DNA from: a virus
DNA length: 35,337 nucleotides
Reading direction: 5' to 3' (one strand)
Virus record (IMG/VR): IMGVR_UViG_3300045988_098553
Shown here: positions 6,502 through 32,585 of the stretch, piece by piece
How positions within the stretch are numbered: position 1 is the first letter of the stretch
Layout: every line of letters begins with the position of its first letter
Made by a program: the position numbers and the translations under genes
Notes under the pieces: model-generated
What the model was told of the DNA's origin: nothing
Database searches by the model: none
What the model saw: only the letters and a program-made list of their open reading frames with translations

Positions 6502-7326
6502 ATGGCTCAAGAGCTTACATTTGATACCAAAAAGCCCGAGAACGCCTTTAAGGAGCAGCGACTCGACCCGCTGCGCCGCGGCGAGCGCGGAAACCGTGAA
6601 CTCACGGTAAGCATCGCCTCCAAGGGCGTTCCCTACGATCTCACCGGATGCACGGTGCGATTTATCGGCACCACCGGTGGCGGTCAGCTCGTTGGACCGT
6701 CTGAAATCGAGGTCACAAACGCAACAGTCGGCATGGTGCGCCACCTGCTGCCGGCAGAGATGTCGACCGATGCCGGTCTCGCGCGTTGGTACTACGAGAT
6801 CTACAGGGGAGAGGATTACCTCGACACGACCGAGACATGCTCGGTCAAGGTCTTGCAAAGTGCCGATATCGGCGGTCAGCAGGCGACGGTCTATATCTCG
6901 ATTTTGGAACAGGCGAAAATCGATGAGCAAGCGCGTGCCGATGCCGAGTCAAAACGCGCTGATGCTGAGATTCAGCGCGAGGCCAACGAGCAGGAGCGCG
7001 AGACCTCATTTGTCGAGATGTCCAACAAGCTCGCCGCTGCCGCCGCTACCGCAAAGGCGGCTCGCGATGATGCGACCGCCTCTGCCAAAGCCGCCGAGAA
7101 ATCGGAACAATCTGCTGCTGCTAGCGCTTTGAGTGCCGGCAAATCGGCAGATAGCGCAGCCGCCGTAATCAAGGATACCGAGGCGGCTGCTGCCGATGCG
7201 CGCCTTGCGGCAGACGAGGCGCGAGGCTCCATCTCAGCCGACAAGAGCATGTATTTCAAGCGCATCACTGATGAAAATGGCGACACGTGGCCTGTCATCG
7301 TAGATACGACCGTCAAGGGGGACTAA
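6502..7326 (+). CDS. BppU-like baseplate upper / tail fibre protein (274 aa)
   Basis: N-terminus (ELTFDTKKP...RELTVSIASKGVPYDLTGCTVRF) resembles the BppU_N/DUF2479 domain. Ala-rich coiled-coil centre is typical of fibre shafts. Confidence 0.6.
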   Translation: MAQELTFDTKKPENAFKEQRLDPLRRGERGNRELTVSIASKGVPYDLTGCTVRFIGTTGGGQLVGPSEIEVTNATVGMVRHLLPAEMSTDAGLARWYYEIYRGEDYLDTTETCSVKVLQSADIGGQQATVYISILEQAKIDEQARADAESKRADAEIQREANEQERETSFVEMSNKLAAAAATAKAARDDATASAKAAEKSEQSAAASALSAGKSADSAAAVIKDTEAAAADARLAADEARGSISADKSMYFKRITDENGDTWPVIVDTTVKGD

Positions 7327-8919
7327 ATGGATCATATCTTTCCGGCAAACGACACGATGGAGAATGGCTTTGCTGCCGTTGCCGATGCAATCCTGAGCCT
7401 GAATGTCGCACCTGCGCCTTACCCCGAATGGGATGCCGCCAAGGGCGAATTCACCGTCAAGTCAATCCTGCGATGGCTGAGCTCCGAGAGTGACGGCAAG
7501 ATCTACGCCGTCGACCAGACGCTCGATGCCGTCCAGACGCTCACAAAGAGCCTCGCCAACGCAGACATCGCCAATCCGGTGCCGTCCACGCTGCTCAAGC
7601 CCGGTACCGACCCTTACATGGGTGTTGGTCCGTTCCGTTACGAGCACGTCAACGGCTACAAGGACGATGCAGGCGCCTGGCATATTACCGGCATGCGTTC
7701 CTTCGGCAATTTCAGCTATACGGACGGTCGAGACGTTTTCGCCCTCGCGCCCGTGCGTTATGTGTTTCATGGCATTGTCGATGGCAAATATCGCGTTGCA
7801 TGCTCCGATCGTCCTCACGTGGGCTACGTGCCCGAGGATCGTTCGCTGAGACTCGACGGCACTCTTGAACCGTTCATGTGCCGCGCCGCGTTTGGCGCAT
7901 CCAAGGATTCCTCCGGCAAGCCCTGCTCGGTCGCCGGCGCCAAGCTTTGGACCCGTAGCTGCTCTCATAACTCGATGAATGAGGCTGCTAAGAAGAAGGG
8001 CACCGAGTACAGCGGCTACACCGCAGCCGACTATGACTATATTTACGAGATGAACCTGCTCAAGTATGCTCACAAGTCGAGCCAGGCCAATTTCGCGGGC
8101 TGCTCGAACCATACCGAGCAGACGCCCGTGACGGTTGCTGGTTCCGGCGCTCCTACCGTCACCATCGCCAAGACCGTCGCCGACAAGTGGCCCATCGGAT
8201 CTGCCGTCATGGTCGGCACCACAACGGTCGCCGGTCGAGACCGAGGCAATGCCGACGCTTTCGACATCGCAGATCAGGCCAATATCGTCAAGAAAACGGT
8301 CAATGGCGACAATGTCGTTCTGACGCTCGATTGTGGCAACATCACGACCAAGGTCGGTCAGCTCGTCTCAACGGCTCCGTGGAATCCCGGCGCGACCGTC
8401 GGCATCGTCGGTGACGGCTCGCCTTATGACAACAAGTCCGGTCGCGAGCCCTTTGCCATCCAAGGTATCGAGGTCATGCTCGGCGCCTGGGAGATTCTCG
8501 GCGATCAGCTCGTCAAGGGCGAGGATGACGGCTACGGCTACTATCTCGTCGAGGACACGTCCAAGTCTGCTACCTCCGTGACCTCCGACTACACCAAGAT
8601 TTTTACGCTGCCGATCAAGGCTGCGGATGGCGAGATGTATCCGTCCGCAATGGTCAAGGGCAAGGGCTCTCTGGTGCCATATGGCACCGGCGGCTCAACC
8701 GGCGCAGGTGTCGGTGACGGCATTTGGTATTACGGTGGGAAAAAGACCGATACGTATGAAGTCCGTGTGTTCGGCATCCTCGGGAATGGCTCTGGCGCTG
8801 GCTTGCGCCGCGCGGGCCTCTACTACTGGCCGGGCGGGGCGTGGTGGTACAACGCTTCGCGCGTCTCGCCGAATGGTCGAAACAGGGTGAATGCCGACGT
8901 GCCGCCGCAGGCGGCGTAA
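7327..8919 (+). CDS. Receptor-binding / tail fibre protein; DGR target protein with C-terminal variable region (530 aa)
   Basis: Last large tail gene. Its C-terminal codons (VRVFGILGNGSGAGLRRAGLYYWPGGAWWYNASRVS) are the VR copy of the downstream TR. Confidence 0.85.
   Translation: MDHIFPANDTMENGFAAVADAILSLNVAPAPYPEWDAAKGEFTVKSILRWLSSESDGKIYAVDQTLDAVQTLTKSLANADIANPVPSTLLKPGTDPYMGVGPFRYEHVNGYKDDAGAWHITGMRSFGNFSYTDGRDVFALAPVRYVFHGIVDGKYRVACSDRPHVGYVPEDRSLRLDGTLEPFMCRAAFGASKDSSGKPCSVAGAKLWTRSCSHNSMNEAAKKKGTEYSGYTAADYDYIYEMNLLKYAHKSSQANFAGCSNHTEQTPVTVAGSGAPTVTIAKTVADKWPIGSAVMVGTTTVAGRDRGNADAFDIADQANIVKKTVNGDNVVLTLDCGNITTKVGQLVSTAPWNPGATVGIVGDGSPYDNKSGREPFAIQGIEVMLGAWEILGDQLVKGEDDGYGYYLVEDTSKSATSVTSDYTKIFTLPIKAADGEMYPSAMVKGKGSLVPYGTGGSTGAGVGDGIWYYGGKKTDTYEVRVFGILGNGSGAGLRRAGLYYWPGGAWWYNASRVSPNGRNRVNADVPPQAA
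8761..8867 (+). repeat. DGR variable repeat (VR), 107 bp, in frame within the target gene
   Basis: Aligns without gaps to 8990..9096 (offset 229). There are 15 mismatches, every one opposite an A in the TR copy. Confidence 0.9.
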
Positions 8920-8941
8920 GTCGGCAGAGGGGCGGCGCCCC
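8893..8941 (+). other. Two adjacent GC-rich stem-loops just 3' of VR (candidate DGR homing-associated hairpins)
   Basis: First: gccgac/gtcggc (8893..8898 / 8920..8925) enclosing ccgcc/ggcgg (8903..8907 / 8912..8916), spanning the stop codon. Second: ggggc-ggc-gcccc (8929..8941). No U-tract follows either. Confidence 0.45.
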
Positions 8942-8989
8942 TGAAAAACGGCCCAGGGACCTGCCGTGCATGCAGGTGGAATTCCTTTC

Positions 8990-9096
8990 GTCCATGTGTT
9001 CGGCAACCTCAGGAATGGCTCTAACGCTGGCTTGCGCCGCGCGAACCTCAACAACTGGCCGGACAGGGCGAGGTGGAACAACGCTTCGCGCGAATC
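8990..9096 (+). repeat. DGR template repeat (TR), 107 bp
   Basis: Non-coding copy of VR. Contains 23 adenines, 22 of them at codon positions 1 or 2 in the VR frame (7 AAC and 1 AAT codons). 15 of the 23 are substituted in VR. Confidence 0.9.
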
Positions 9097-9250
9097 TGAT
9101 TGATAGCTCCCATAAAACCCGCACGGCAGAGTACCCGGTGGAAGCATCGGGCGCGCCTGGCTTAACAAAGTGAAATGGCATATAAGACCACCGGGTCAGT
9201 AGGCATTTTGCCGACCGCTCGGAATGCAATCAGAGAGCTGAATTGGTCGA
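9097..9250 (+). ncRNA. Putative DGR spacer (Sp) RNA region between TR and RT
   Basis: Non-coding 154 nt between TR and the RT start. A 9-bp long-range stem acccggtgg (9133..9141) / ccaccgggt (9188..9196) encloses a GC palindrome (ggcgcgcc). Confidence 0.45.
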
Positions 9251-10321
9251 ATGAAAAGTTACTGCAAGGGCCTTGCCGTCGATACCGATCTTGTCGGCAG
9301 GGCCTATGAGAATTGGCGGTCTGGCGAATCAGGCCGGACCAATGAATGGCGTGTGTACAAGGAATACGGCTCGCCCAATGCCCTTATCGCCGAGATCGTA
9401 GCCGAGGCCAATGCCGGCACACTGCGATTCGAGCCCTTGAGCACGAGACCGAGGCAAGATGGCGGCAAGCTGCGCAACATTGGCGTCGAAGGTGTCAAGC
9501 AGCAGATCTGCGGCTACACCGTCGACCTCGCCGTCGATTCGCTCATGCGCGCGAAAACTGGATACTGGCAGGTCAACAGACCTGGTATGGGACAGTTCCG
9601 CGCGGCACCGACGGTGCAGAAATGGGTCAATCAGTGCGCCTATCACGTGCATCTCGACGTCAAATCCTGCTATGAGTCCGTGAGGTGCGCTGACGTCATG
9701 CGCGTACTCGAGAAGTACGTGCGCTCGAGCGTTGTGCTCGGTATCGCCAAGGCGATTATGGACTCGTACCCAGACGGTCACCTGATGATCGGTAGCTACT
9801 TCTCACTCAGGATGGCGCTGCTCATCCTGAGCTTTGGCTACCACCATGTCGAGAACATGCATAAGACTCGCCGCGGCAAGCGCGTGGCGCTTGTCGAGCA
9901 CCAGGCATGGTACGTCGATGACATCTGGCTTTTCGGCAGCGACAAACGAAACCTCAAGTGCGCAGCGCGTGACCTTGCGAAGTACCTCAAGGCCGAGTTT
10001 GGGTTAAAGCTCAAGCCCTGGAAGGTGTGCAGGGCAACCGACGATGATCCGACGGACATTGCCGGCCCCGTGGTCAGACGTAAGCGGATCACAATCCGCG
10101 ACAAGACCTTTCGCAAGGGCAGACGCGCGTTATTCCGATGCCGCCGAAAACCAACGAATCTGAGGCTGGCAAGACGCCTGATCGCCTATTGCGGCTGGTT
10201 CAAACACACCGACAGCCAGAGATTCTGCTACAACAACGGACTCTATCCGGCACGCCGCCAAGCCAAAAAGGTAATCGCGAGATACGACAGATTAAGGAGT
10301 GCTCATGCAGTTCGAGCTTGA
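9251..10321 (+). CDS. DGR reverse transcriptase (356 aa)
   Basis: RT motifs by eye: KLRNIGVEGVKQQICGY (motifs 1-2), IGSYFSL (motif 4 region), AWYVDDIWLFG (YxDD, motif 5). Sits directly 3' of TR. The C-terminal ~90 aa is very basic. Confidence 0.85.
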   Translation: MKSYCKGLAVDTDLVGRAYENWRSGESGRTNEWRVYKEYGSPNALIAEIVAEANAGTLRFEPLSTRPRQDGGKLRNIGVEGVKQQICGYTVDLAVDSLMRAKTGYWQVNRPGMGQFRAAPTVQKWVNQCAYHVHLDVKSCYESVRCADVMRVLEKYVRSSVVLGIAKAIMDSYPDGHLMIGSYFSLRMALLILSFGYHHVENMHKTRRGKRVALVEHQAWYVDDIWLFGSDKRNLKCAARDLAKYLKAEFGLKLKPWKVCRATDDDPTDIAGPVVRRKRITIRDKTFRKGRRALFRCRRKPTNLRLARRLIAYCGWFKHTDSQRFCYNNGLYPARRQAKKVIARYDRLRSAHAVRA

Positions 10322-10679
10322 GTTTTGCGACCGCGAGCCCGCAAAGGTCACGGTCATCCAGGACGGCCCCATCGCCAATATCTGGCTCCGCAAGGACATT
10401 GCCGAGGATACCGTCGATAACGGTCCCGACGGCACGCCTTACAAGATTTGGCGCTGCAACACATTGTTTTTCCAGCGCATCGGCACGCCGACCGCCGAGG
10501 AAATCGAGGCTGACTTTGACGCAATCGCCGAGCAGCAGATTGTCGGCAATCGCACGGTCGATGAGCGCATTGGTGCGACCGAGCAGGCTGTCGCCGACAA
10601 CGGCAAGCAGCTCGAGACGGCGTTTCAGGCGCTTGCCGAACTCGGCGACATGATCGCAACGGCGGGAGGTGAAGTCTAA
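10305..10679 (+). CDS. Hypothetical tail-fibre-adjacent protein (124 aa, acidic)
   Basis: AAGGAG RBS 5 nt before ATG 10305. Overlaps the RT 3' end. Position equivalent to XkdW-like genes. Confidence 0.55.
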   Translation: MQFELEFCDREPAKVTVIQDGPIANIWLRKDIAEDTVDNGPDGTPYKIWRCNTLFFQRIGTPTAEEIEADFDAIAEQQIVGNRTVDERIGATEQAVADNGKQLETAFQALAELGDMIATAGGEV

Positions 10680-10804
10680 TGGCAGCAATCTACGCAACGC
10701 TTATCAAGGATGGCGCTATCAACCCCAAGACCGGTGAGCCCTGGAAGATTGAGGACGTGAACGTCCTTTGGCGTGCCTCCGTCAAAAAGATTCTCGGTAA
10801 GTAG
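10679..10804 (+). CDS. Small conserved phage protein (41 aa), CD1375/XkdX-like by position and sequence
   Basis: TAATG coupling with the upstream gene. MAAIYATLIKDGAINPKTGEPWKIEDVNVLWRASVKKILGK resembles small proteins found after tail fibre genes of Gram-positive phages. Confidence 0.45.
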   Translation: MAAIYATLIKDGAINPKTGEPWKIEDVNVLWRASVKKILGK

Positions 10805-10884: not shown

Positions 10885-11298
10885 ATGGAAGTGCTAAAGC
10901 TCTTCGTCCCATATGGTCCGGCATGGCTCGGCGGCGTACTGCTGGCGCTCATCGCCTTTTATTTTGGCAAGCAATTTCTCGAAGAGTACAAGCTGCAAAA
11001 CGAACGCAAAAGCGCCCTCGACATCAAGCGCGAGGAGCGAAAACAAGACGAGGTGAAGGAGCGCGCCCAGCGCGACCGCGAGCGGTCGGAGATGGAGGGG
11101 CGAATTGCAGCCCAGATGGAGCGGTCAAGTTCGCTCATGGAGGCAATGAAAACCCTGATGGAATCCGTCGTGGCGTCAAATGACGTCCTTCATGCGGATC
11201 TGGTCCATAGCCAGGCGCGCAGCCAGGGCATGGCCCAAAAGGTCGACCACATCTGCGACCGGGTTGACCTGCTCTACGACAAAGAATCTACGAGATAG
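10885..11298 (+). CDS. Membrane-anchored coiled-coil protein of the lysis cassette (137 aa)
   Basis: One N-terminal TM helix (WLGGVLLALIAFYFG), then a charged coiled coil. GAGGGGG RBS. Directly precedes the holin. Confidence 0.55.
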   Translation: MEVLKLFVPYGPAWLGGVLLALIAFYFGKQFLEEYKLQNERKSALDIKREERKQDEVKERAQRDRERSEMEGRIAAQMERSSSLMEAMKTLMESVVASNDVLHADLVHSQARSQGMAQKVDHICDRVDLLYDKESTR

Positions 11299-11306
11299 GA
11301 TACGAA

Positions 11307-11612
11307 ATGACGGAGATTCAGGCGGGCCTCACGGTTGCCACGGTGCTTGTCGTGCCGTATATCGTGCAGGCCATTAAAACTAAGGCAATGACCGGCAACG
11401 CCGCTCGCTGGACGGCAATCGCCGTATCGGTGCTATGCGGTGCGCTCACGGCCATGGCAAGCGGAATGCCGACCGACCCGGGCGCTTGGGTGACATCCAT
11501 CTTTGCCTGCGTCGGCGGCGTACAGGTTGCCTACGCGGCTTTCAAGAGCGTTGGAATCACCGACAAATGGCTCGATGCGCTGCTCTCGCTCGGCGAGATC
11601 AAGGCGGACTAG
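11307..11612 (+). CDS. Holin (101 aa, multiple TM helices)
   Basis: Small, 2-3 hydrophobic helices, immediately upstream of the endolysin. Confidence 0.65.
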   Translation: MTEIQAGLTVATVLVVPYIVQAIKTKAMTGNAARWTAIAVSVLCGALTAMASGMPTDPGAWVTSIFACVGGVQVAYAAFKSVGITDKWLDALLSLGEIKAD

Positions 11613-11614
11613 TC

Positions 11615-12574
11615 ATGGCAATCACCCAGCGCGAGGCATTCGCGCAGGTCATGGAGCACCTTGTCACTCATGACGGAGGCTCCGGTCATGGGTACTCTCA
11701 ATATAATCGCATGGGCGACGGTACGACCGAGACGATCAAACTGTCTGATGGTACGACCGTGACCATCGCCGGCGGCGATCGCGATTGCTCGTCTGCCGTC
11801 ATCACGGCGCTGCGCGCCGTCGGCATCAATACGTTCGGCGCAACTTATACCGGCAACATGCGCGAGCAGTTGCTCAAGACCGGGCTTTTTGGATGGCGCA
11901 AGATGGGTGTCAAGTCCGCGCAGCGCGGCGACATTTATCTAAACGAGAGGCACCATACAGCTGTATGCATCTCGCCTTATGGCTCGATGCGCGGCGATCT
12001 CTTGGCACAATTCTCCATCTCGGAAAAGGGCACCATCACAGGAACCAAGGGCGACCAAAACGGACGTGAATCCAACATCAAGGCCTACTATAGCTATCCC
12101 TGGGACGGCACTCTCTATTGGCTCAACGACGGCAAGACGCTTTCCGGCGCCAATACCGAGGTCGCCGACAATACCGATGCCGATCTCGGCGATGTGCGCT
12201 ATTGGGGCCCAAAGTTCACGCGGGCAATTCAAAAGCAGCTCGGTACTACCGTTGATGGCGTGATTTCCGGACAGTGGGATTGCAACAAACGATATTTCTG
12301 GGCTGTCGAAAACTGTGTCAATTGGACAAAGACCGGCAAAGGCGTCGGCTCTGACATGATTCTCGCGCTCCAAAAGAAGATCGGCTGCAAGATTTACCCG
12401 ATCGTCGGAGGCGTCCAGGCACGACAGATGACCAACGGCACCATCTACAGGCATCAGCAATGGCTTATTGCCAAGGGCATTTCAGTCGGATCGTGTGGCG
12501 CCGACGGCTATCACGGCCCTGACACCAACAAGGCGGTCGCCCAGGCAATCAAGCGCAAGCTCTATGCAGCGTAG
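11615..12574 (+). CDS. Endolysin: Amidase_5/NlpC-P60-like Cys-His peptidoglycan hydrolase with C-terminal PG-binding-like repeats (319 aa)
   Basis: GDRDCSSAVITAL (Cys) and ERHHTAVCIS (His) motifs. Two C-terminal repeats of the form LQKxxG...VDG / GPDTNKAV. Start taken at ATG 11615 just after the holin stop, not at the track start 11435. Confidence 0.75.
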   Translation: MAITQREAFAQVMEHLVTHDGGSGHGYSQYNRMGDGTTETIKLSDGTTVTIAGGDRDCSSAVITALRAVGINTFGATYTGNMREQLLKTGLFGWRKMGVKSAQRGDIYLNERHHTAVCISPYGSMRGDLLAQFSISEKGTITGTKGDQNGRESNIKAYYSYPWDGTLYWLNDGKTLSGANTEVADNTDADLGDVRYWGPKFTRAIQKQLGTTVDGVISGQWDCNKRYFWAVENCVNWTKTGKGVGSDMILALQKKIGCKIYPIVGGVQARQMTNGTIYRHQQWLIAKGISVGSCGADGYHGPDTNKAVAQAIKRKLYAA

Positions 12575-12741: not shown

Positions 12742-14274
12742 CTAGGCTGCGAGCAGCACGCCAAAGCCGCCTTTAAGCGGCAGTATCCCAACGCTGTGAT
12801 ACACTTGGAAAAGTTCGGGATAATTCACGCCCGGGCTACCACAGCTGATTTTCCCGAACTCTCCATTGGAGGGTTCGGGTTTTTTGTTTTCGCTGCTGGG
12901 ACGGCACAAAATGAACTGCACCAGCAGGCTCCCGTCCTCGTTGACCGTCACTCGGTCGACGAAAGCGGCGACCATCCCGCGGGGACCGTCCGATTGGCGC
13001 ATCTTGTAGAGCGCGAACAAGATCATGTCTCGGTCGATGAGCGGCGCTCCGCGCTTAATCTCATCGAGCTCAGCCTTGAGTGCCGTGAGCTCGTCTTGCA
13101 ACCCGTTGATTTTGACCGCCATTCGGTCCGTAGAGCCGAGTTTGCACGCTAGGTCGATAGCGTTATCTATCTCGCGCTCAACGTCCGTTATTCGGCGGCT
13201 CAGGGCTTCACGCGCGGAAATCTCCTGCTCGGCATCTTTGTCCTGACGCGCAAGTACCATGTCGACTATACGCTCGTCCAGATCGGGATTCTCATTGAGC
13301 AGGCGTGCGCATGCTCCGATCACCTTGTCCTCCACCTCGTCTCGACGCATCGACACCTTGGTTTTGCGGCAGCGGTAGTAGTGGTACTGCCTGCCGTTTT
13401 CGCCATAGCCGCAATCGCTCTCAAATTGATTGCCGTCAGCGTCGTAAATCTTGCCTGACAACAGATACTCAGCATTCATCTTGCCTCGCCTTTTCCGACC
13501 TCTGGATGCCATGTGCGCATGCGCACTGTCCCAGAGCTCGCGGTCGATAATGGACGGCATGCCGTTTTCTTTCCTGAAATCGCCCCAGGTATAGGTGCCA
13601 ATGTAGCGCTCGCAATTGAGCAGCCTGCTCACTGCTTCATTGCTAAAATGCCTGCCGGTGACGGTCTTATATCCAAGGCCGTTGAGTCTGCGCATGATCT
13701 CTGCTTTTGTCTCGCCTGCGGCGCACATGTCAAAGGCCATGCGCACGCCTTCCGCCTCGTGTTCATTGATGGCATAGTATCCATCGGCGCCACGGTCATA
13801 CCCAAAGATTGAGACGCCGTTGTGCTTACACTTGAGGGCGTTACCTTCCATCCCGCGCTTGACGTTTTGCGCGAGATTGGCGCTGTAGTATTCGGCCATT
13901 CCCTCAAGCACAGATTCGAGGATGATGCCGTCCGGACCATCGGGTACCGACTCGGCGGCAGTCACGATCTCCACGCCGCACTTGCGCAATTTCGCCTTGT
14001 AGACGGCTGAATCGTAGCGCGAGCGTGCGAAGCGGTCGGTCTTGTAGACGATCACCTTTGTCCAGCGCTGTGCCTGGGCATCGAGAATCATCTTTTGAAA
14101 GCCGGGACGCCCGGCTGCATTGGTGCCAGATCGCGCCTCGTCCGTGTACGTCTTTACGATTTCAAAGCCCTTGGATGCCGCGAATTGGGAGCAGACGCGC
14201 ACTTGGTCCTCAATCGATTCCTCGCGCTGCTTGTCTGAGCTAAATCTCGCGTAAATTACCGCTTTTTCTGCCAT
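12742..14274 (-). CDS. Large serine recombinase (phage integrase), 510 aa
   Basis: N-terminal resolvase catalytic motif (VIYARFSSDKQ, catalytic Ser). Recombinase domain, Cys-containing zinc-ribbon region (YYRCRK) and a C-terminal coiled coil. Adjacent to the repressor. Confidence 0.9.
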   Translation of the reverse strand: MAEKAVIYARFSSDKQREESIEDQVRVCSQFAASKGFEIVKTYTDEARSGTNAAGRPGFQKMILDAQAQRWTKVIVYKTDRFARSRYDSAVYKAKLRKCGVEIVTAAESVPDGPDGIILESVLEGMAEYYSANLAQNVKRGMEGNALKCKHNGVSIFGYDRGADGYYAINEHEAEGVRMAFDMCAAGETKAEIMRRLNGLGYKTVTGRHFSNEAVSRLLNCERYIGTYTWGDFRKENGMPSIIDRELWDSAHAHMASRGRKRRGKMNAEYLLSGKIYDADGNQFESDCGYGENGRQYHYYRCRKTKVSMRRDEVEDKVIGACARLLNENPDLDERIVDMVLARQDKDAEQEISAREALSRRITDVEREIDNAIDLACKLGSTDRMAVKINGLQDELTALKAELDEIKRGAPLIDRDMILFALYKMRQSDGPRGMVAAFVDRVTVNEDGSLLVQFILCRPSSENKKPEPSNGEFGKISCGSPGVNYPELFQVYHSVGILPLKGGFGVLLAA

Positions 14275-15683: not shown

Positions 15684-16206
15684 CAACGGAGACAAAAAGA
15701 CCTGCGCGACGTGTGCCAGGCTCGACGGCAGCATCTGCAAGCTCGACGGATTCTGCATCGGAAGCATCGAACACGCCGCGTGCGAGAAATACAAGCAGCG
15801 TCCGAGCAGCGCCGGCAGTGAGAATACTGGCGCTCGAAAAGCGATTACCAACAATGAGCGCCGTGAGATCGCCGCAAGGTTGCGACATCGCCGCAAGCAA
15901 ATGGACAACGAGAAGCCTCCGCAGATTCCATCGCTCGCAGCAACCATCTACCTGTTGGAGATTTCCGCTGCGGTCAAGCTCAACGAGAGCGGAGCGCTTT
16001 TCAATCGTCTGGCCGATTTGATTGACCGCGAGACGTGCACCTTTGATGGCACGCCTGATCGCATTGGCTATGTTTGCTCGATTTGCGGGCAAACTTTCAC
16101 GCGCCGGCCTTTTATGAAGCGCACATTTGGCGATAGCACTCAGGTCGAGATTCCATTTCGATTTTGCCCTTACTGCGGTGCAGAGGTGGTGGCAGACGAT
16201 GAATGA
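15676..16206 (+). CDS. Two-domain Cys-rich protein (176 aa): N-terminal CxxC...CEKYK module plus C-terminal LADLID..TC / CSICG / FCPYCGAEV zinc ribbon
   Basis: Motifs read from the translation. ATGA-type overlaps at both ends. Confidence 0.65.
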   Translation: MTNNGDKKTCATCARLDGSICKLDGFCIGSIEHAACEKYKQRPSSAGSENTGARKAITNNERREIAARLRHRRKQMDNEKPPQIPSLAATIYLLEISAAVKLNESGALFNRLADLIDRETCTFDGTPDRIGYVCSICGQTFTRRPFMKRTFGDSTQVEIPFRFCPYCGAEVVADDE

Positions 16207-16609
16207 TGTGCGCCGCAGGATTGCAAGCAGGCTGCGCGAAAAGTTTGACCTGATTGAATGTTCGCTTTTGCATCCTGACGGATCTGAGCCCAACTGGTCT
16301 GTCGAAGAACTGTTTGAGGTGCTGGATATCGATTACCCCGAGTGCCTTAACCCGTGGGAATGCCCTTACGACTACATCGCCGACCTCATAGACGTTCCGG
16401 CTTGCAAAGACTTGGTCGAGCACGTCCCAGACCCGTTCATTCCGACTCAGCGCATGAGAGATGGCTATTTCGAGTGCTCAGAGTGCGGATGGGATGGACA
16501 CCTGATGGAGTACATCGGCTTTGGAGATATGGGTTCATTCGAGCCGAAATTCTGTCCCGAATGCGGAAGGGAGATTTTACGTGAGCAGCAAATTGAAAAG
16601 GCGTCTTGA
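16199..16609 (+). CDS. Zinc-ribbon paralogue (136 aa)
   Basis: Start ATG lies within gacgATGAatga of the upstream gene. RRRIASRLREKF, IADLIDVPAC, CSECG and FCPECGREI motifs parallel the neighbouring genes. Confidence 0.65.
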   Translation: MNDVRRRIASRLREKFDLIECSLLHPDGSEPNWSVEELFEVLDIDYPECLNPWECPYDYIADLIDVPACKDLVEHVPDPFIPTQRMRDGYFECSECGWDGHLMEYIGFGDMGSFEPKFCPECGREILREQQIEKAS

Positions 16610-17311: not shown

Positions 17312-17590
17312 ATGAAGCGGATTAAGCTCGCAAGGCCCGTCGATTGCCCAACGTGCGGCGCGACCCCTTGCCATCAGAAATGGAAGCCGCGCAAGACGGT
17401 TGACGCAAACGAGATGGCTGTGATAGGAGACGCTAACCCCGTCGATGCAGTCCATTGCCGTAGGTGCGACCTTGTTTTTCGCGTGTCGCACTTCGAGCAC
17501 GACGACACATATATCACGAGCTGGGATGAGATTGAGACGATTCCCCGCTACTGCCCGTGGTGCGGCGCGGAGGTGGTGGACGATGAGTAA
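17312..17590 (+). CDS. Zinc-ribbon paralogue (92 aa)
   Basis: CPTCG ... CRRC ... YCPWCGAEVVDDE*. The 3' end tgcggcgcggaggtggtggacgatgagtaa is near-identical in design to 16175..16206. Confidence 0.65.
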   Translation: MKRIKLARPVDCPTCGATPCHQKWKPRKTVDANEMAVIGDANPVDAVHCRRCDLVFRVSHFEHDDTYITSWDEIETIPRYCPWCGAEVVDDE

Positions 17591-17825
17591 GCGTAAGGTC
17601 AAGCTCTATCTCGTCAACGATTGCGGCGGCGAGTGGGAGGATGCCTGGAATGAGCCGGTCACCGCATTCGACAACCAGGAAGATGCCACGCGATGCGCGG
17701 TCGCGCGCGGGCCACGTCAAAGCATTTGGGAGAAAGGCCGAGACTACTCCGGCTCTTTTGTAACCAAAATCGATGCCGTTATCGACGATTCAATCTTTGA
17801 CCACGAGGACGCGCGAGATGGGTGA
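17583..17825 (+). CDS. Hypothetical protein (80 aa)
   Basis: ATG within gacgATGAgtaa coupling to the upstream gene. Confidence 0.5.
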   Translation: MSKRKVKLYLVNDCGGEWEDAWNEPVTAFDNQEDATRCAVARGPRQSIWEKGRDYSGSFVTKIDAVIDDSIFDHEDARDG

Positions 17826-19192: not shown

Positions 19193-19434
19193 CGGATGAC
19201 GAGATCAAGCAGGAATTGGATGATGCCGAGTTCTCGATTGAGATTGATTGCCTGCGAGACCCTGACTTTATCAAAGTCACCAGCGGAAAAGTCTATAGGC
19301 CCGAGCGCACTGCGGATAAGAACACGGTGAATGATTTTCTCAACGATACAGTGATTTTCACGTGTAACAGCTGCGGTCATGAGGTCTTTTACACCGACGC
19401 CTACTGTTCGCACTGCGGGTCACGATTCATATGA
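19183..19434 (+). CDS. Small protein with C-terminal zinc ribbon (83 aa)
   Basis: CNSCGHEVFYTDAYCSHCGSRFI* at the C-terminus. Confidence 0.55.
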   Translation: MGMTDDEIKQELDDAEFSIEIDCLRDPDFIKVTSGKVYRPERTADKNTVNDFLNDTVIFTCNSCGHEVFYTDAYCSHCGSRFI

Positions 19435-19943
19435 GGGCGCTCGAGTTTTTTGTGCCGTCAAATCGTCTCGACCCCAAGGGCAACCGCACTCACGTTGACG
19501 GATGGAATGAGTACATAAAGGCCGTTAACACGTCCCGCCATGTCGGTGCCGCGCGTGAGCGCGAGAACGTCCACCACGTTGCCGCCTATGCAGCGATCGC
19601 CATGAAACAAGCGGGCTGGACTCCACCAGAGACCCATTCACTCGTCTACGTGACCTTTATCGAGCGCGACCGCCGGCGAGACATTCCCAATGTCTATGGC
19701 GGGCTCAAATGGGTGCTCGACGGTCTGAGCCGACCGCGCGGTAGCAAGCTCGATGGCGCCGGTGCCATCGTGGACGATTCTCAAAAGTGGCTGACCGTCA
19801 TTCCCATGGTCGCTATCGACAGGCAAAACCCTGGCGTCCATATCAAGATCGTGCCGGTCGACAATCCGGCAGAAATCGTTCAGGTCATGGGAACAAACGT
19901 CCCCATTCCAGCAAACACAAACAAAGGAGTTATCCAATTATGA
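19431..19943 (+). CDS. rusA: RusA-like Holliday junction resolvase (170 aa)
   Basis: RRRDIPNVYGGLKWVLDGL...GAIVDDSQ resembles the RusA D-x-D-N...K...D-x-L...DD motif pattern. Early-region position. Confidence 0.5.
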   Translation: MRALEFFVPSNRLDPKGNRTHVDGWNEYIKAVNTSRHVGAARERENVHHVAAYAAIAMKQAGWTPPETHSLVYVTFIERDRRRDIPNVYGGLKWVLDGLSRPRGSKLDGAGAIVDDSQKWLTVIPMVAIDRQNPGVHIKIVPVDNPAEIVQVMGTNVPIPANTNKGVIQL

Positions 19944-20560: not shown

Positions 20561-21736
20561 ATGGCGGCAACGGTCCCAGTCAAGCAGGATTCGCGCGGAG
20601 TCTGGTACAGCAGGATATATCTTGGCAAGGACTCCAAAGGCAAGAAGATTCAGGCTTACCGCTCTTTTCCAGAGGCCACCAGTGAGGCAGATGCTCGAGT
20701 CGCAGCCGCAATCTGGGCATCTGACCTCACGGCAGACGGTCGCGTGCGCTCCACGGCGCTCACCGACATGCTCGCGGACTACATCGAGATGCGCGAGCTC
20801 AACGGCGCGAGTCCCAACTCGGTGAAGCAGTGGCGCCAATTCCTGCGCTGCTACATTACCCGATTTCTGCGCGGCAAGCGCGCGGACGAGGTCACGGCGT
20901 TTGAATTCACGCAATTCAACGGCGTGCTGCTGCGCCGCGGCTCGCGCGACGGTAAGCCCTTGAGCCCCAACACGGTCAACGCGGTCTATCAGTTTCTTCG
21001 TGGTGCCTACAGGTATTTCGTGAGCGTTGGCCTTGTGGAGACCAACCCGCTGCTCGACGCCGTCAAGCCCTACCGCGACCAAGACGAGGCGATCGCGCTT
21101 GAGGAAGATGACGTTACCATCCTCAACGCCTACCTTGACCCAATCGTGAGCTTCAAGGTCGAGGTGGGCAGCATAGAGCGCCGCAACGCCTTTGCAGCGT
21201 GGCTTGCCCTGCACACCGGCGCCCGATGCGGCGAGGTGTGCGCCGTGCGACCCAAAGACGTCTACCAGAAGCGCGGATACATCCATATTGGCGGCACGGT
21301 GGTCGAGCCTGGCAACGAGCAGCCATACCGCAAGGAGAAGCCCAAGAGCTCAACCTCCAGGCGCAACATATCACTCGTCCCAGAGGAGCTTGAGGTCATC
21401 GCGAGATTTATGGCATGGCACGAGACCCAGAAGGGGAGTGCTCGAGACATGGGCATCGCGAGCGTTGACGGCACGTGGGCGAGACCATCGACCTTGAGCA
21501 GCTGGTTCAAACGGCTGGTCGAGAAGCTCGACCTAGACCGTCAGGCGACCTTCCACACGCTTCGCCATACGCACGCAAGCTGGTGCCTGGCTCACGGCAT
21601 CGACGTTGTCACACTGAGCGAGCGCCTGGGGCACTCGTCACCTGCAATCACGATCCGAATCTACGGCCACATGCTGCAAGGCCGCGATATGGCGGCGGCA
21701 GAGACGTTCTACAAGGCAATCCAAGGAGGTGTTTAG
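20561..21736 (+). CDS. Tyrosine recombinase / phage integrase family protein (391 aa)
   Basis: C-terminal catalytic signature FHTLRHTHASWCL...LGHSSPAITIRIYGHM (R..HxxR..Y). The N-terminus (GVWYSRIYLGKDSKGKKIQAYRSF) looks like an arm-type DNA-binding domain. Confidence 0.88.
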   Translation: MAATVPVKQDSRGVWYSRIYLGKDSKGKKIQAYRSFPEATSEADARVAAAIWASDLTADGRVRSTALTDMLADYIEMRELNGASPNSVKQWRQFLRCYITRFLRGKRADEVTAFEFTQFNGVLLRRGSRDGKPLSPNTVNAVYQFLRGAYRYFVSVGLVETNPLLDAVKPYRDQDEAIALEEDDVTILNAYLDPIVSFKVEVGSIERRNAFAAWLALHTGARCGEVCAVRPKDVYQKRGYIHIGGTVVEPGNEQPYRKEKPKSSTSRRNISLVPEELEVIARFMAWHETQKGSARDMGIASVDGTWARPSTLSSWFKRLVEKLDLDRQATFHTLRHTHASWCLAHGIDVVTLSERLGHSSPAITIRIYGHMLQGRDMAAAETFYKAIQGGV

Positions 21737-27160: not shown

Positions 27161-27619
27161 ATGGCTGGCAGGAACAAACAGCCGGTCGATGTGCTGACCG
27201 CGCGCGGCAAGTCGCATCTGACCAAGGCCGAGAAGGAGCGCCGCAAGGCGACCGAGTCGGTCGTGCCGGTCGCGCTTCGCGGCGTGTCGCCGCCCGGCTA
27301 CCTCGACAAGTGGCCTGAGATTCGTGGCGAGTTCGAGCGCTACGCCGAGATGCTGACGGCGCTCATGCCCGACAATTTTGGTCAGCCCGATGCCGACTGC
27401 CTCGCGCGCTACGTTGTCTCCGAATCGCTCTATGAGCGATACACCTCAGATTTGATGGGGGAGCACGACCCGCTCAACATCAAGAACTTGCAGATCGCGC
27501 AGGACCGCGCCTTTAAGCAGGCGCAGGCTTGCGCATCCTCGCTCGGTCTCACCGTGACCGCGCGCTGCAAGCTCGTCGTTCCCGAACGCCGTGAGGATGA
27601 CGGCGAGGGTGAGTTCTAG
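27161..27619 (+). CDS. terS: Terminase small subunit, P27 family-like (152 aa)
   Basis: GRNKQPVDVLTARGKSHLTKAEKERR... and C-terminal SSLGLTVTARCKLVVP are typical of P27-family TerS. Directly precedes TerL. An alternative GTG start at 27155 is possible. Confidence 0.75.
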   Translation: MAGRNKQPVDVLTARGKSHLTKAEKERRKATESVVPVALRGVSPPGYLDKWPEIRGEFERYAEMLTALMPDNFGQPDADCLARYVVSESLYERYTSDLMGEHDPLNIKNLQIAQDRAFKQAQACASSLGLTVTARCKLVVPERREDDGEGEF

Positions 27620-29276
27620 CGCGCGAGCGCGGCGGCACAAGCGCATCAACTGTCCCGAGATCACGACCTACATGCGCATGGTCGAGACCGGTAAGGTCAG
27701 GGCATGCGCAGAGCAGCATCAGCTCATGGCGCACCTCCGGCGCGTTTTCGCCGATGAGGAACTGATAATCGATACCGAGCGCCTTGCCGAATACAGGCAT
27801 TACGAGAAGTATTTCCCGTTTGAGCTTTTTGCCTGGGAGCTTTTCGCTTTCGCCCTGTTCATGTGCGTGTTCAACAAGGACGGCACGCCTCGTTGGTCCC
27901 AGGAATTAGCCTACATGGGGCGAGGTGGCGGCAAGAACGGATTTTGCAGCTTCATTGCGTTCTGCTCGACAACCAAGGTCAACGGCATTCGCGACTACGA
28001 TGTCGACATCTGCGCTAACTCCGAGGAACAGGCAAAGACCTCTTTCGACGATATCTGGAATATCCTCGAGAACTCTGGTCAGCGTAGGCGATTTCAAAAA
28101 GGCTTCCATTGGAACAAAGAGGAGATCGTCTGCCGGTCGACCAACTCGCGCATTAAGTACCGCACCGACAACCCCAAGTCGAAGGACGGCCTGCGCTCCG
28201 GCATGGTCATCTTCGACGAGGTGCATGCCTACCAGAACTTCGACAACATCAAGGTTTTTACGACCGGTCTCGGCAAGAAGCCTCACCCGCGGCGTCTGTA
28301 CATCACGACCGATGGAGACGTGCGTGACGGCGTGCTCGATAGCCTGCTCGATAAGTCGCGCCGCATCCTCTCCGGCGAGATTCCCGACAACGGATTCCTA
28401 CCGCTGATCTTCAAGCTCGACACGGCTGACGAAGTCTCCGACAAGCGCAACTGGGTCAAGGCGAACCCGAGCCTGCCGTACCTTCCCGTTTTGGTGAGCC
28501 AAATCGAGCAGGAGTATCAGGATTTCCTTGATAATCCCGCAGGCAACGCCGACTTCATGACCAAGCGCATGAATCTGCCTGCCGGCAATCCGGATTACCA
28601 GCTCACTGATTACGACAACCTCAAGGCCGCATCGCGCGAGCTGCCGGACCTTTCCGGCATGACCTGTGTTTTCGGCATCGACTTCGCAAAAACCCAGGAC
28701 TTCGTCGCGGCAGCGCTGCTTTTCCGCGACGGTGACGAGTATTTCGCGATCCAGCACTCTTGGGTCTGCCGCGCGTCAAAGGACTTGGCGCGCATCAAGG
28801 CGCCGCTCGATGAGTGGGAGCGCCGCGGCCTGCTCGAGTATGTCGACGATGTCGAGATTCACGCGAGTCTCGTGACCGATTGGCTCTACGAGCAGATGGG
28901 CACCTACGACATTCAAGAGGGCGCCATCGACTCATACCGCCACTCGACCTTCATGCGCGAGCTCGATTCAATCGGCTTTTCCGCGAAGGAAAAGACCGTC
29001 AAGCTCGTGCGTCCGTCCGACCTGATGCAGATTCAGCCAATCGTCAATTCGGCGCTCATCAACCACCGCATCGCCTGGGGAGACGATCCGATGATGCGGT
29101 GGTACGCGAACAACGTTAAGCTCACCGCCGCCGCGCACGGAAACTACTGCTACGACAAGATTGAGCCGAAATCGCGTAAGACCGATGGCTTCATGGCGCT
29201 CGCTGCCGCATTCACGGTGGCCGAACATCTGCCTGATACCTCCGACATCGAAATCATCCCAACCATGACCTTCTAG
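27591..29276 (+). CDS. terL: Terminase large subunit (561 aa)
   Basis: Walker A-like GRGGGKNGF. Walker B/DE-like MVIFDEVH. C-terminal nuclease region GIDFAKTQDF. Exact start uncertain (ATG 27591/27597 or GTG 27609). Confidence 0.9.
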   Translation: MRMTARVSSSARARRHKRINCPEITTYMRMVETGKVRACAEQHQLMAHLRRVFADEELIIDTERLAEYRHYEKYFPFELFAWELFAFALFMCVFNKDGTPRWSQELAYMGRGGGKNGFCSFIAFCSTTKVNGIRDYDVDICANSEEQAKTSFDDIWNILENSGQRRRFQKGFHWNKEEIVCRSTNSRIKYRTDNPKSKDGLRSGMVIFDEVHAYQNFDNIKVFTTGLGKKPHPRRLYITTDGDVRDGVLDSLLDKSRRILSGEIPDNGFLPLIFKLDTADEVSDKRNWVKANPSLPYLPVLVSQIEQEYQDFLDNPAGNADFMTKRMNLPAGNPDYQLTDYDNLKAASRELPDLSGMTCVFGIDFAKTQDFVAAALLFRDGDEYFAIQHSWVCRASKDLARIKAPLDEWERRGLLEYVDDVEIHASLVTDWLYEQMGTYDIQEGAIDSYRHSTFMRELDSIGFSAKEKTVKLVRPSDLMQIQPIVNSALINHRIAWGDDPMMRWYANNVKLTAAAHGNYCYDKIEPKSRKTDGFMALAAAFTVAEHLPDTSDIEIIPTMTF

Positions 29277-29288
29277 AGGGGAGGCCGT

Positions 29289-30443
29289 TTGAAAGCTATC
29301 GATTTTCTCGGCTTGCGCGTGACTCAGGCCGAGATTGAGCCTGCCGCCGGTGGAAGTGTCGAGACTAAACTCGCCGCAACCACCTATTTCAAGGCGATCG
29401 CGCTCGCGACCGCCATCTCATACAAGGCCAATGCGCTCGCGATGTGCCTGTTCCGCGTCTATGAGAAGGGCAAGGAGGTCAACGATGACCTCTGGTACCG
29501 GCTGAACGTCGAGCCTAACGACAACCAGAACGCAGCACAGTTCTGGTGCGAGCTCGTCGAGCGGCTCTGCATGCGCGGTGACGCGCTCGTCGTGCCTGTC
29601 GGCGACCGCTTCTACGTCGCCGACTCGTACTCACGCGAGGAGCATCCACTTGAGCAGGACATTTTCAGCGGCATCGTCATCGGCAACGCCAACCTGATCA
29701 AGAAGTACCGCGCGAGCGAATGTATGTTCTTCAAGCTTGCCGACAAGAACATCTCGTCCTATGTCGAGAGCATGCTCGACTCGTACTCGACACTCATGGC
29801 GGCGGCGATGGCGGCATACAAGTCGACCTGCGGTCAGAAATACAAGCTCGTGATGGAACGCAGCATGACAGGCAGTCTCAAGGACGAGGGTGAGACAGAG
29901 GCCATGCTCAAGCGCAACCTCACGACATTTATCGACAATGCTAACGCCGTGTACTTCGAGACCAAGGGCTCGCGCCTAGAGCCGGTCAAGGCTGAGAATG
30001 CGGTAGAGCCGACCGATATCTCCGACCTTCGTAAAGAGATTTACGACAGCGCCGCCATTGCATTCAAGGTTCCGAAATCGATCATGTATGGCGACATGAC
30101 CAACATGGGCGACCTCGTCAACACGATGCTTACGTTCTCGGTCGACCCCGAGGCGAAAATGATTTCCGACGAGGTCACGCGGAAGAATTTCAAGCCAGAC
30201 GAAATCATGGCCGGCACAAAGGTCAAGGTCGACACGACCACCATCAAGCACATCGACATCTTCGATGCCGCGGGACCCGCTTCGCAGCTGGTGTCCTACG
30301 GCGTTTTCTGCATCAACGACGTGCTCAAGGCACTTGGTTACGAGCCTATCAGCGACCCAATCGCCGACAAGCGCTTTATCACCAAGAATCTTGGCGCCGT
30401 TGAGGACATACTTCGCGACGCAAGCCAAGGGGGTGAAATCTAG
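29289..30443 (+). CDS. Portal protein, HK97 family-like (384 aa)
   Basis: Size and position between TerL and the ClpP-type protease. TTG start with GAGGGGAGG RBS. Confidence 0.85.
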   Translation: MKAIDFLGLRVTQAEIEPAAGGSVETKLAATTYFKAIALATAISYKANALAMCLFRVYEKGKEVNDDLWYRLNVEPNDNQNAAQFWCELVERLCMRGDALVVPVGDRFYVADSYSREEHPLEQDIFSGIVIGNANLIKKYRASECMFFKLADKNISSYVESMLDSYSTLMAAAMAAYKSTCGQKYKLVMERSMTGSLKDEGETEAMLKRNLTTFIDNANAVYFETKGSRLEPVKAENAVEPTDISDLRKEIYDSAAIAFKVPKSIMYGDMTNMGDLVNTMLTFSVDPEAKMISDEVTRKNFKPDEIMAGTKVKVDTTTIKHIDIFDAAGPASQLVSYGVFCINDVLKALGYEPISDPIADKRFITKNLGAVEDILRDASQGGEI

Positions 30444-31303
30444 TGAAGAAATACTTCCAGCTCACTACCTCCGAGGACGGCACGACCGCCGACCTCGACA
30501 TCTACGGCGACATCAGCTCGTGCTGGTGGGACGATGACGCCATGTCAGCTCCTAAGCTGTCCAAGCAGCTCGACGAGCTCGGCGATGTGTCACAGATCAA
30601 TGTTCACATCAATTCCTACGGCGGCGAGGTCGCCGAGGGCCTTGCCATTTACTCGGCGCTCCGCCGACACAAGGCGCGCGTGCGCACCACCTGCGACGGC
30701 TTCGCCTGCTCGATCGCGTCCGTGATTTTCATGGCCGGTGACGAGCGCCTCATGTCCGATGCATCGCTGCTGATGATCCATAACGCCTGGACGAGCGCAT
30801 GGGGTGTCAACGCCGCCGACCTGCGCAAGCTCGCCGACGATATGGACACCATCACGAGCGCATCGAAGTCCGCTTACATGGCGCGCGTCTCCATCACCGA
30901 GGACGAGCTCACCGAGCTCATGGATGCCGAGACGTGGATCAGCCCGGCAGACGCCGTCGATATGGGCTTTGCCACCGCAATCGAGACATTCGAGAGCGGC
31001 GACAAAGCATCCCAGGGCGCGCGCGATTCGCTCATGGCGCTCGTCATGGCATCCGTCGAGCATCGTGCCGCCGCCAAGGGTGACGACGATGACCAGGACG
31101 ATACCGATGACGAGGACGGCGCCGACGATAACGACGATTCCGGTGCCGATGACGGCAATTCCGATTCGGACGATGACGAGGGCGACGGTGACGGCGATGA
31201 TGCCGACTCCGATGACGAGCCCGAGGACCCTGAGAAGGATCCCGACAAGAAGCAGGCTTTTGCCGGCGGCATCGCCGCATTCACGAGCCTTTTCGCCAAT
31301 TAA
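30443..31303 (+). CDS. ClpP-family prohead (head maturation) protease with long poly-acidic C-terminal tail (286 aa)
   Basis: INSYGGEVAEGLAIYSAL...CDGFACSIASVIFMAGD...LLMIHNAW (S14 Ser/His context). C-terminal ~75 aa is dominated by D/E/G. Confidence 0.85.
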   Translation: MKKYFQLTTSEDGTTADLDIYGDISSCWWDDDAMSAPKLSKQLDELGDVSQINVHINSYGGEVAEGLAIYSALRRHKARVRTTCDGFACSIASVIFMAGDERLMSDASLLMIHNAWTSAWGVNAADLRKLADDMDTITSASKSAYMARVSITEDELTELMDAETWISPADAVDMGFATAIETFESGDKASQGARDSLMALVMASVEHRAAAKGDDDDQDDTDDEDGADDNDDSGADDGNSDSDDDEGDGDGDDADSDDEPEDPEKDPDKKQAFAGGIAAFTSLFAN

Positions 31304-31325
31304 AACGAAATAGATAGGAGACTCA

Positions 31326-32585
31326 ATGAGCCTTATCAAGACCACCAAGAGCGCATCCAAGATCGCCGAGGCCTTCCAGTCCGGCGACCCGAAGCAGATG
31401 GAAAGCGCCTGGGATGCTTTCGGCAACGAGATCGCCGAGTCCATCCGCGCCGACTTCGAGCTTTACAACCAGTCCAAGGACGATCAGGTCCTTGCAAATC
31501 GTGGCTACCGCACGCTGACCGCCAAGGAGTCCGCTTGGTACACCGGCATCGCCCAGGCGCTCAAGGGTGCCGAGTCTAAGCAGGCCTTCATCGACATCCT
31601 CGATGACGAGCACGTCGATGACCTGATGCCCGAGACCGTCATCGAGGACGTCCTGCGCTACCTCATCGAGACCCGACCGCTGCTCAGCAAGATTCATTTT
31701 GCGAATGCCGGCTACTCGACCAAGTGGATCATCAATGACTCCACGGTGCAAAAGGGCACCTGGGGCGAGATTGACGAGAAGATCACCAAAGATATCAAGA
31801 GCGCGCTCAAGGTCCTCGACATCACTCAGGCCAAGTACACCGCTTTCTGCATCATCCCGCTCGACCTTCTCGACATGGGGCCTGTATTCCTCGATGCCTT
31901 CATCCGCGCCGTCATGGCCGAGGCGCTCGGCTACGGCCTTGAGGATGCCATCGTCAACGGAACCGGCGTCCATATGCCCGTCGGTGTGACCAAGAACCCC
32001 AACGGCGATTTCAATCAGTCCACCGGCTACCCCGACAAGGAGAAGGTTGCCGTAACGTCCTTTGCGCCTGCCGATTACGGCAAGCTCGTCGCCAAGGTCG
32101 CGCTCACCGAGAAGGGCAAGATGCGCGACATCAACAGCGTCGTGCTGCTCGTCAACACGGTCGACTACCTGACCAAGGTGATGCCGGCGACCACCGTGCT
32201 CGCCCCCGAGGTCGGCGGCTACGTGCGCGACCTGTTCCCGTTCCCGACCGAGGTCATCAAGTCCAATGTCGTCAAGACCGGCACCGCCGTGCTCGGAGTC
32301 ATCGAGGACTATACGCTCGCCGTCGGCGGCAAGCGCAACGGCGCCATCATCTTCGATGACTCCACCAACTTCCTCGACGATGCCCGCACCTTCAAGCTCA
32401 TCCAGCATGCAGCCGGTCGCGCCTACGACAACACCAGCTTCGAGGTACTGGACATCACCAACCTCGACCCGGCGTATGTCACGGTCAAGAATGTCAACGC
32501 CGCCGCTGCCGCGAGCGTCGAGACCCAGTCCGATACCTCCGAGGCCCACGCCGTCGAGGATGCCGCCGAGCTGCCCGTAGCTTAA
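31326..32585 (+). CDS. Major capsid protein, HK97 fold family (419 aa)
   Basis: Position after the protease. Helical N-terminal delta-like region. Strong TAGGAG RBS. Confidence 0.88.
   Translation: MSLIKTTKSASKIAEAFQSGDPKQMESAWDAFGNEIAESIRADFELYNQSKDDQVLANRGYRTLTAKESAWYTGIAQALKGAESKQAFIDILDDEHVDDLMPETVIEDVLRYLIETRPLLSKIHFANAGYSTKWIINDSTVQKGTWGEIDEKITKDIKSALKVLDITQAKYTAFCIIPLDLLDMGPVFLDAFIRAVMAEALGYGLEDAIVNGTGVHMPVGVTKNPNGDFNQSTGYPDKEKVAVTSFAPADYGKLVAKVALTEKGKMRDINSVVLLVNTVDYLTKVMPATTVLAPEVGGYVRDLFPFPTEVIKSNVVKTGTAVLGVIEDYTLAVGGKRNGAIIFDDSTNFLDDARTFKLIQHAAGRAYDNTSFEVLDITNLDPAYVTVKNVNAAAAASVETQSDTSEAHAVEDAAELPVA

Follow-up and report, generated by a model that had tools for sequence, protein, structure and literature searches.

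How does a diversity-generating retroelement (DGR) work when the accessory protein Avd cannot be recognised anywhere around it? The question is raised by IMG/VR virus record IMGVR_UViG_3300045988_098553, a stretch of 35,337 nucleotides (nt) that was analysed over its whole length and is called the window below. Directly behind a tail-fibre gene it carries a template repeat (TR), a spacer and a gene for a reverse transcriptase (RT), and the 3' end of the fibre gene holds the corresponding variable repeat (VR). How about one in four DGRs manages without Avd is a question that was posed in 2017. The explanation that we consider best, and probably correct, is that this is an active DGR free of accessory genes, ordered target-TR-RT and placed in the tail module of the phage, in whose operation no phage-encoded Avd is involved.

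For genome annotation the result is nothing unusual, since the architecture is known and only the host group is new. The phage clade nevertheless offers a compact test case, composed of a TR-spacer-RT unit of 1.4 kb that is evidently active, has many natural variants and includes a spacer fold supported by covariation. If its RT does work alone, it would provide a simpler chassis for DGR mutagenesis tools, which now use the Bordetella RT (bRT) together with Avd.

Anatomy and activity of the element

The element has the features by which DGRs are known: TR/VR differences at adenines only, an RT of the DGR clade by the TR, and a VR at the 3' end of a coding target. VR and TR differ at 15 of 107 nt and all 15 mismatches are at TR adenines, of which there are 23 in total; a GC-rich stretch of 14 nt near the 3' end of the TR, CAACGCTTCGCGCG, is identical in the VR. 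Variation among close relatives follows the same pattern. In 11 phages that are 91-95% identical across positions 8600-9260, 21 of the 23 adenine-templated VR positions are variable, against a background of 11 variable positions among the 84 non-adenine positions of the VR and 71 among 447 flanking positions. Because nearly all adenine sites vary between such close relatives, this element, which has no recognisable avd and carries a leucine in motif 4 of its RT (see below), works in nature, and it looks like an active DGR with ongoing adenine mutagenesis. Moreover, across 75 related loci the RT adjoins a TR/VR pair wherever such a pair is detectable.

The target protein matches PHROG 17147 (4.9e-66) and PHROG 5302, "tail protein", and fibres homologous to it are present in related loci both with and without an adjacent RT. 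Two such fibre genes (L108:1665-3932 and L121:1656-3944) share the end motif SPNGTRGEWQA with the DGR-linked fibres of L113 and L118, and have neither TR nor RT adjacent to them; here the DGR has either been lost, leaving a frozen VR, or is elsewhere in the genome.

Between the VR and the TR of the window two GC-rich hairpins are predicted, which are candidate elements for target recognition, termination or both. In RNA folds of about 30 relatives the two-hairpin layout recurs at the same position after the VR with different stem sequences. The hairpins resemble the target-recognition hairpin of the Bordetella phage BPP-1 (PMC3240598), and by this analogy they may have a comparable function.

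The preliminary description of this DNA had stated that the interval between target and RT holds nothing but TR and spacer, and that the DGR has no recognisable Avd; both statements stand, and none is recognisable anywhere in the window either. From the target stop (8919) to the RT ATG (9251) there are 331 nt, composed of the TR and a spacer of 154 nt. The open reading frames (ORFs) over this interval are an in-frame reading of the TR (8966..9103), an out-of-frame ORF on the plus strand (8841..9173) and two antisense ORFs. The spacer has no open frame at all in 19 of 32 non-redundant relatives and is therefore non-coding, and the antisense ORF of 191 amino acids (aa) in the window is not conserved.

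In order to search the remainder of the window, 137 stop-to-stop segments of 100-330 aa from all six frames were scanned against Pfam and NCBIfam, with the best 25 families listed; the Avd families PF22296, PF05635 and TIGR02436 were not among the matches listed. The small basic ORFs of the window, scanned directly, gave no Avd match, while the Bordetella Avd used as control in the same run matched PF22296 at 7e-36. A phmmer search with the Bordetella Avd against all ORFs of the 75 related loci returned nothing at E values up to 10, a single-sequence search of low sensitivity. Domains of HRDC or MutS type are likewise absent from the families listed for ORFs of the window.

The same compact layout is conserved in related phages. 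The distance between VR end and TR start is 71-226 nt, and thus too short for an avd gene, in 50 of the 51 related loci with a detected VR/TR pair. These loci are spread over Coriobacteriia, Bifidobacterium, Clostridia, Negativicutes and Elusimicrobia, and the Avd-less compact layout is therefore a property of the lineage and not a local deletion.

What does not stand is the proposal that this architecture is non-canonical. In the survey of Wu et al. (2018, NAR 46:11, PMC5758913) avd is found in only 74% of 372 DGRs, and 75 of the 372 form Architecture A, a TR-RT core with no accessory gene. Like the window, Architecture A (A1) has target, TR and RT on one strand, no avd, HRDC or MSL gene, and adenine-specific mismatches. 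The lack of any detected Avd, HRDC or MutS-type domain places the element in this class, with CH1, the accessory protein of another architecture, set apart by its description only; the avd gene within the cassette that defines Architecture B (BPP-1 type) was not found. The element belongs to a known class of accessory-free DGRs, for which Collinsella phages are a new host group; the 372-element set included few Actinobacteria (PMC5758913).

Reverse transcriptase and spacer RNA

The RT matches the reverse transcriptase family PHROG 1423 (2e-29), and its top sequence match in the PDB is the Bordetella bRT (8ub7, phmmer E 0.02). An AlphaFold model based on an alignment with 52 homologues has high confidence (pLDDT, the predicted local distance difference test, 93.9), and its top Foldseek match is again bRT (8ub7_A, E 2.2e-16, TMq 0.78, TMt 0.84, 337 aligned columns), with 18% identity in the structural alignment. 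According to the model the RT has the full subdomain plan of bRT, composed of N-terminal extension, fingers, palm and thumb, without any added domain. D223 and D224 of the catalytic motif 5 are invariant in the 52 homologues. In one otherwise near-identical prophage the RT frame is in two pieces (L119:2792-4053), which suggests that a similar DGR is in decay there.

An Arg/Lys-rich C-terminus of about 90 aa had been described for this RT, and the composition bears this out: lysine and arginine make up 30% of the last 90 aa, with an isoelectric point (pI) of 11.8 and a net charge of +23, while the bRT counterpart has 15% and +5. The suggestion that Avd function might have been absorbed into this tail, on the other hand, is not supported. 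The match to bRT extends over the full length, and the basic segment is the normal thumb, modelled as helices 284-299, 304-318, 323-328 and 331-355; with a length only 28 aa above that of bRT, the RT has no room for an absorbed four-helix bundle. In the sequence alignment the basic segment faces that of the bRT thumb (RRKRITIRDKTFRKGRRALFR versus RIWPTHKLLRKSSVKRAKRKVAN), and a reading of both sequences by eye pairs AYCGWFKHTDS with SWSGHAQWADT. Related Avd-less RTs have a mean of 24% lysine plus arginine in the thumb. A positively charged C-terminus is typical of DGR RTs (PMC3521204); the strongly basic thumb seen here fits a larger role in RNA binding, a suggestive comparison with one Avd-dependent RT, bRT, on the other side.

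Motif 4 reads IGSYFSL, with leucine in place of glutamine as first noticed, and the sequence MIGSYFSL is aligned with PIGSLTSQ of bRT by both phmmer and MAFFT. The signature (I/V/L)GxxxSQ is thus incomplete, the IG and S positions being kept. No canonical motif 4 lies elsewhere in the protein, as the Foldseek superposition on bRT covers its full length. Among the 52 homologues G181, S182 and S185 are invariant and L186 is conserved in at least 90%, and IGSYFSL is kept throughout the clade of Coriobacteriia phages, at identities of 38-100%. An HMMER search of 1.84 billion cluster representatives extended the comparison: in the 150 nearest clusters motif 4 ends in SQ in 78, SL in 23, SI in 8, SM in 5 and SA in 5, the remainder having other endings, and hydrophobic endings other than glutamine are concentrated in the closest 35 or so. 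More distant compact DGRs without room for avd (L047-L075) have Q, K (Blautia), G (Elusimicrobia, Megasphaera), S or P as last residue, and all of them still show TR/VR mismatches at adenines only.

Hence a "divergent RT" is not a peculiarity of this phage: the motif-4 leucine is the mark of a whole RT sub-lineage and is compatible with adenine-specific mutagenesis. The SQ dipeptide is present in 90% of DGRs and is not strictly required, with SP, SH, NQ, PA, AQ and VQ as tolerated variants (Schillinger et al. 2012, PMC3521204). In those variants, as here, adenine mutagenesis persists with an intact (I/L/V)G core and a variable pair of final residues; SL, SI, SM and SA are absent from that list and extend it.

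The spacer between TR and RT is a structured RNA. In 18 relatives RNAalifold gives three conserved helices, 9134-9138/9147-9151, 9160-9163/9168-9171 and 9191-9196/9217-9222, the last of which encloses a hairpin at 9203-9211. The helix positions can pair in 94.4% of cells, compared with 29-47% when the partners are slid, and compensatory changes occur in 10 of 17 pairs, with a covariation score that none of 500 shuffles reached. In the equivalent spacers of the relatives L002-L046 the single-stranded blocks GAAAT, GTAG and CAGAGAG are invariant or nearly so. No matching Rfam family was found for positions 8700-9400. In most of the same relatives the start codon of the RT is TTG, behind a conserved CAGAGAG...GGTC block, while it is ATG in the window; the TTG starts may keep RT translation deliberately low or under the control of RNA structure.

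In BPP-1 the Sp RNA bears the primer, a "thumb ring" and a stem-loop that binds bRT (bioRxiv 10.1101/2023.10.23.563531). By analogy the spacer RNA is probably the functional equivalent of Sp in Avd-less DGRs, although the two have no detectable sequence similarity. A priming duplex between TR and spacer akin to TR117-129:Sp47-56 of BPP-1 was sought, and in most loci the 3' end of the TR was no more complementary to spacer hairpin 1 than to shuffled hairpins. The BPP-1 DGR (mtd-avd-TR-brt; structures 8ub7 to 8ubf) resembles the element in other respects as well: it diversifies a VR at the C-terminus of a tail fibre, its VR and TR share an identical GC-rich stretch at their 3' ends, GC hairpins follow the VR, and a structured RNA lies between TR and RT. 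It differs in having avd, in a motif 4 that ends in glutamine and in a thumb about half as rich in lysine and arginine.

These comparisons suggest a mechanism in which the RT would bind a transcript of the TR and the structured spacer by means of the spacer fold, the basic thumb and the N-terminal extension. It would then prime itself and copy the TR to cDNA, misincorporating opposite adenines, and the cDNA would replace the VR at the 3' end of the tail-fibre gene, altering receptor-binding residues. No phage-encoded Avd would take part. Avd of BPP-1 helps to position the template:primer duplex; here this task would presumably be shared by the RT, whose thumb is unusually basic, and the conserved spacer RNA, or else fall to an unrecognised factor. 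The anatomy, the lack of a detectable Avd, the RT fold, the VR variation at adenines and the covariation of the RNA are shown by the data; that RT and RNA are sufficient, and where priming takes place, we infer. Going one step further, we tentatively propose, as possible rather than probable, that RTs of this sub-lineage, whose motif 4 ends in a hydrophobic residue and whose thumb is very basic, prime themselves and synthesise cDNA with adenine mutagenesis by means of a spacer fold of about 150 nt only, without any partner protein, so that the element would be a natural minimal DGR with a single protein.

Other sources of an Avd function

Several points weigh against a mechanism without Avd. 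Avd is needed for cDNA synthesis in the only DGR that has been studied biochemically (PMC5758913; bioRxiv 10.1101/2023.10.23.563531). Avd is also "very poorly conserved" (PMC5758913), so that a negative profile search is not proof, and the sensitivity of our scan for divergent Avds is unproven. The six-frame scan covered segments of 100-330 aa, ORFs below 100 aa falling outside it, and matches with E values of about 0.02-0.05 could fall below the best 25 families listed. Finally, the ORF in the 495-nt gap between VR and TR of one related locus (L075) is also without a Pfam match, and for this reason profile searches may miss divergent Avds.

The ORF in question encodes 156 aa (L075:6889-7359) and lies at the expected avd site; the gap is the sole long one in the set.

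A supply of Avd in trans, whether from the Collinsella host or from some other resident element, is unlikely. Plasmid-borne avd, TR and brt do work in trans in Bordetella (PMC5758913), but Wu et al., who searched the genomes of avd-less Architecture A elements with avd profiles, found no avd elsewhere in them and proposed an Avd-independent mechanism of retrohoming (PMC5758913). Moreover, the compact layout recurs in hosts of several phyla, and a universal host factor is therefore not to be expected.

Quite unlikely, too, is a highly divergent Avd gene in another part of the phage genome that the profiles failed to detect. The poor conservation of Avd speaks for it (PMC5758913), as do several small basic proteins without known function, for example those encoded at 16112-16423 (minus strand), 17445-17825, 19431-19943 and 32652-33233. 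Yet none of the small basic ORFs matches the Avd model and none adjoins the DGR, while in Avd-containing architectures the avd gene sits inside the cassette (PMC5758913).

A third candidate is the protein of 124 aa encoded just behind the RT. Its gene overlaps the RT stop and has a strong AAGGAG site 7 bases 5' of the ATG. The ORF had been described as acidic and unlike Avd, and this holds: where Avd has 110-130 aa, a basic pI of about 9.5 and a pentameric four-helix-bundle structure, the 124-aa protein has a pI of 4.1 and no helical bundle. Its model (pLDDT 85) consists of an N-terminal four-stranded sheet, two short helices and a C-terminal helix of 35 residues, with no PDB fold match below E 0.29; the protein has no Pfam and no PHROG family, and tblastn against 50,697 INPHARED phages gave no real match. 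Pfam likewise gave no family for the ORFs just 3' of the RT in nine divergent loci.

An iterated profile search showed a member of the 124-aa family to be the gene next behind the RT in 86 of 89 loci, with RTs down to 22-28% identity, and the same holds for 17 of 18 IMG/VR loci; these RT-linked loci were all retrieved via the RT or close relatives, and the sample is biased. A profile search of 5.8 billion proteins collected 740 members, acidic proteins of about 110-135 aa. Two of them (P0220, P0244) are encoded 57-69 nt after tail-fibre genes of 755 and 762 aa homologous to the target, with no RT nearby in the 8-kb stretches examined, and the RT profile found nothing in the loci L108-L112 and L121-L122. 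Three other subfamilies have an RT in their context. Across the whole family the alignment diverges too much to allow viral contigs to be scanned with a pattern.

A small ORF of 41-68 aa, of 41 aa in the window, follows the 124-aa family gene in all contexts and is often tagged CD1375-like (PF23792, weak); holin and lysin come next in most, as is usual where a tail module ends. An identity of the two ORFs of 124 aa and 41 aa with XkdW and XkdX was considered and set aside; Pfam did not confirm it. The pair of acidic protein and small ORF is found behind tail-fibre genes of gut phages with and without an adjacent RT, and thus also at L108:4001-4556 and L121:4001-4538.

Could the 124-aa protein, translationally coupled to the RT, take the place of Avd as a new accessory factor of the DGR? 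Its position after the RT, usually overlapping it, in nearly all loci, including those of Elusimicrobia, Megasphaera and Clostridia, would fit such a role, as would the acidity of every member (pI 4.1-5.5). In the loci L086-L088 head genes stand further downstream in place of lysis genes, yet the RT and the genes of 123 aa and 41 aa stay together. A precedent would be CH1, known from Architecture E of Bacteroides (lineage 3a), which is also a small, acidic, motif-less protein flanking Avd-less DGRs and limited to them; by description it differs, having 160-169 aa and being restricted to relatives of Bacteroides, while members of the 124-aa family are also found at sites that have no adjacent RT (PMC5758913 for CH1). 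The members directly behind fibre genes in RT-negative stretches, the constant small ORF with holin and lysin usually behind it, and the retrieval bias of the RT-linked sample make such a role very unlikely. The 124-aa ORF was accordingly set aside as a DGR accessory gene, being found after fibre genes without an adjacent RT. Most likely the family is an end-of-tail-module gene and not part of the DGR, with TR and RT sitting between the fibre gene and the family member; as an unrecognised cofactor the protein is less likely than an RT that needs no partner.

It is scarcely credible that this DGR is inactive and in decay, its RT being without the canonical glutamine: the RT does score below the Pfam cut-off for RVT_1 (3.3e-5, 24.1 bits against 29.6), and the split RT of L119 suggests such decay in a relative, but YVDD and all other motifs are intact and conserved in a high-confidence model, the SL ending is conserved over many clusters, and the variation at adenine sites of the VR largely refutes it.

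Phage genome and host

The source is a temperate siphophage of about 35 kb of gut Collinsella (Coriobacteriia). The window has a siphophage-type gene set, with tape measure, terminase, portal, protease, capsid and lysis genes and recombinases (Table 1), and since structural, packaging, lysis and recombinase genes are all present it is a near-complete phage genome. A DNA similarity search with positions 7327-10700 against the same 50,697 INPHARED phages gave zero matches; the relatives are prophages and viral contigs from Collinsella and other Coriobacteriia, many of them of 34-37 kb.

Table 1. Positions of the features of the window, grouped into DGR, adjoining genes and other phage genes.
Feature	Position	Strand	Remarks
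Phage genome window	35,337 nt		58% G+C; near-complete
DGR target gene, 530-aa tail fibre or receptor-binding protein	7327..8919	+	VR near C-terminus
Variable repeat (VR)	8761..8867	+	107 nt; 52 nt before target stop
Two GC-rich hairpins 3' of VR, candidate target-recognition and/or terminator elements	8892-8925; 8930-8942	+	first spans target stop codon
Template repeat (TR)	8990..9096	+	229 nt downstream of VR
TR-RT spacer	9097..9250	+	non-coding, structured (RNAalifold, 18 relatives)
DGR reverse transcriptase	9251..10321	+	356 aa
RT motif 4, IGSYFSL	9788..9808	+	residues 180-186; Leu186 at canonical Gln position
RT catalytic motif 5, YVDD	9911..9922	+	residues 221-224; aligned to bRT YMDD
Arg/Lys-rich C-terminal ~90 aa, RT thumb subdomain	10049..10318	+	bRT sequence alignment and Foldseek superposition
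Acidic 124-aa protein	10305..10679	+	overlaps RT 3' end; pI 4.1
41-aa ORF	10679..10804	+	companion of 124-aa gene; PHROG 1382, 3.7e-4
Tape measure	114-2948
BppU_N baseplate protein, among tail proteins	6502-7326		directly before target gene
Holin-like and endolysin genes	10885-12574
Large serine recombinase	12742-14274	-
Tyrosine recombinase, phage-integrase family	20561-21736	+
Small and large terminase, portal, ClpP-type protease, capsid	27591-32585

Two further features of the genome may be recorded. A large serine recombinase and a tyrosine recombinase are encoded in one and the same phage, on opposite strands. In addition, one of the segments of 100-330 aa is a homologue of the actinobacterial type of integration host factor (NF041260, 3e-24; Pfam H2TH_5, 2.5e-9).

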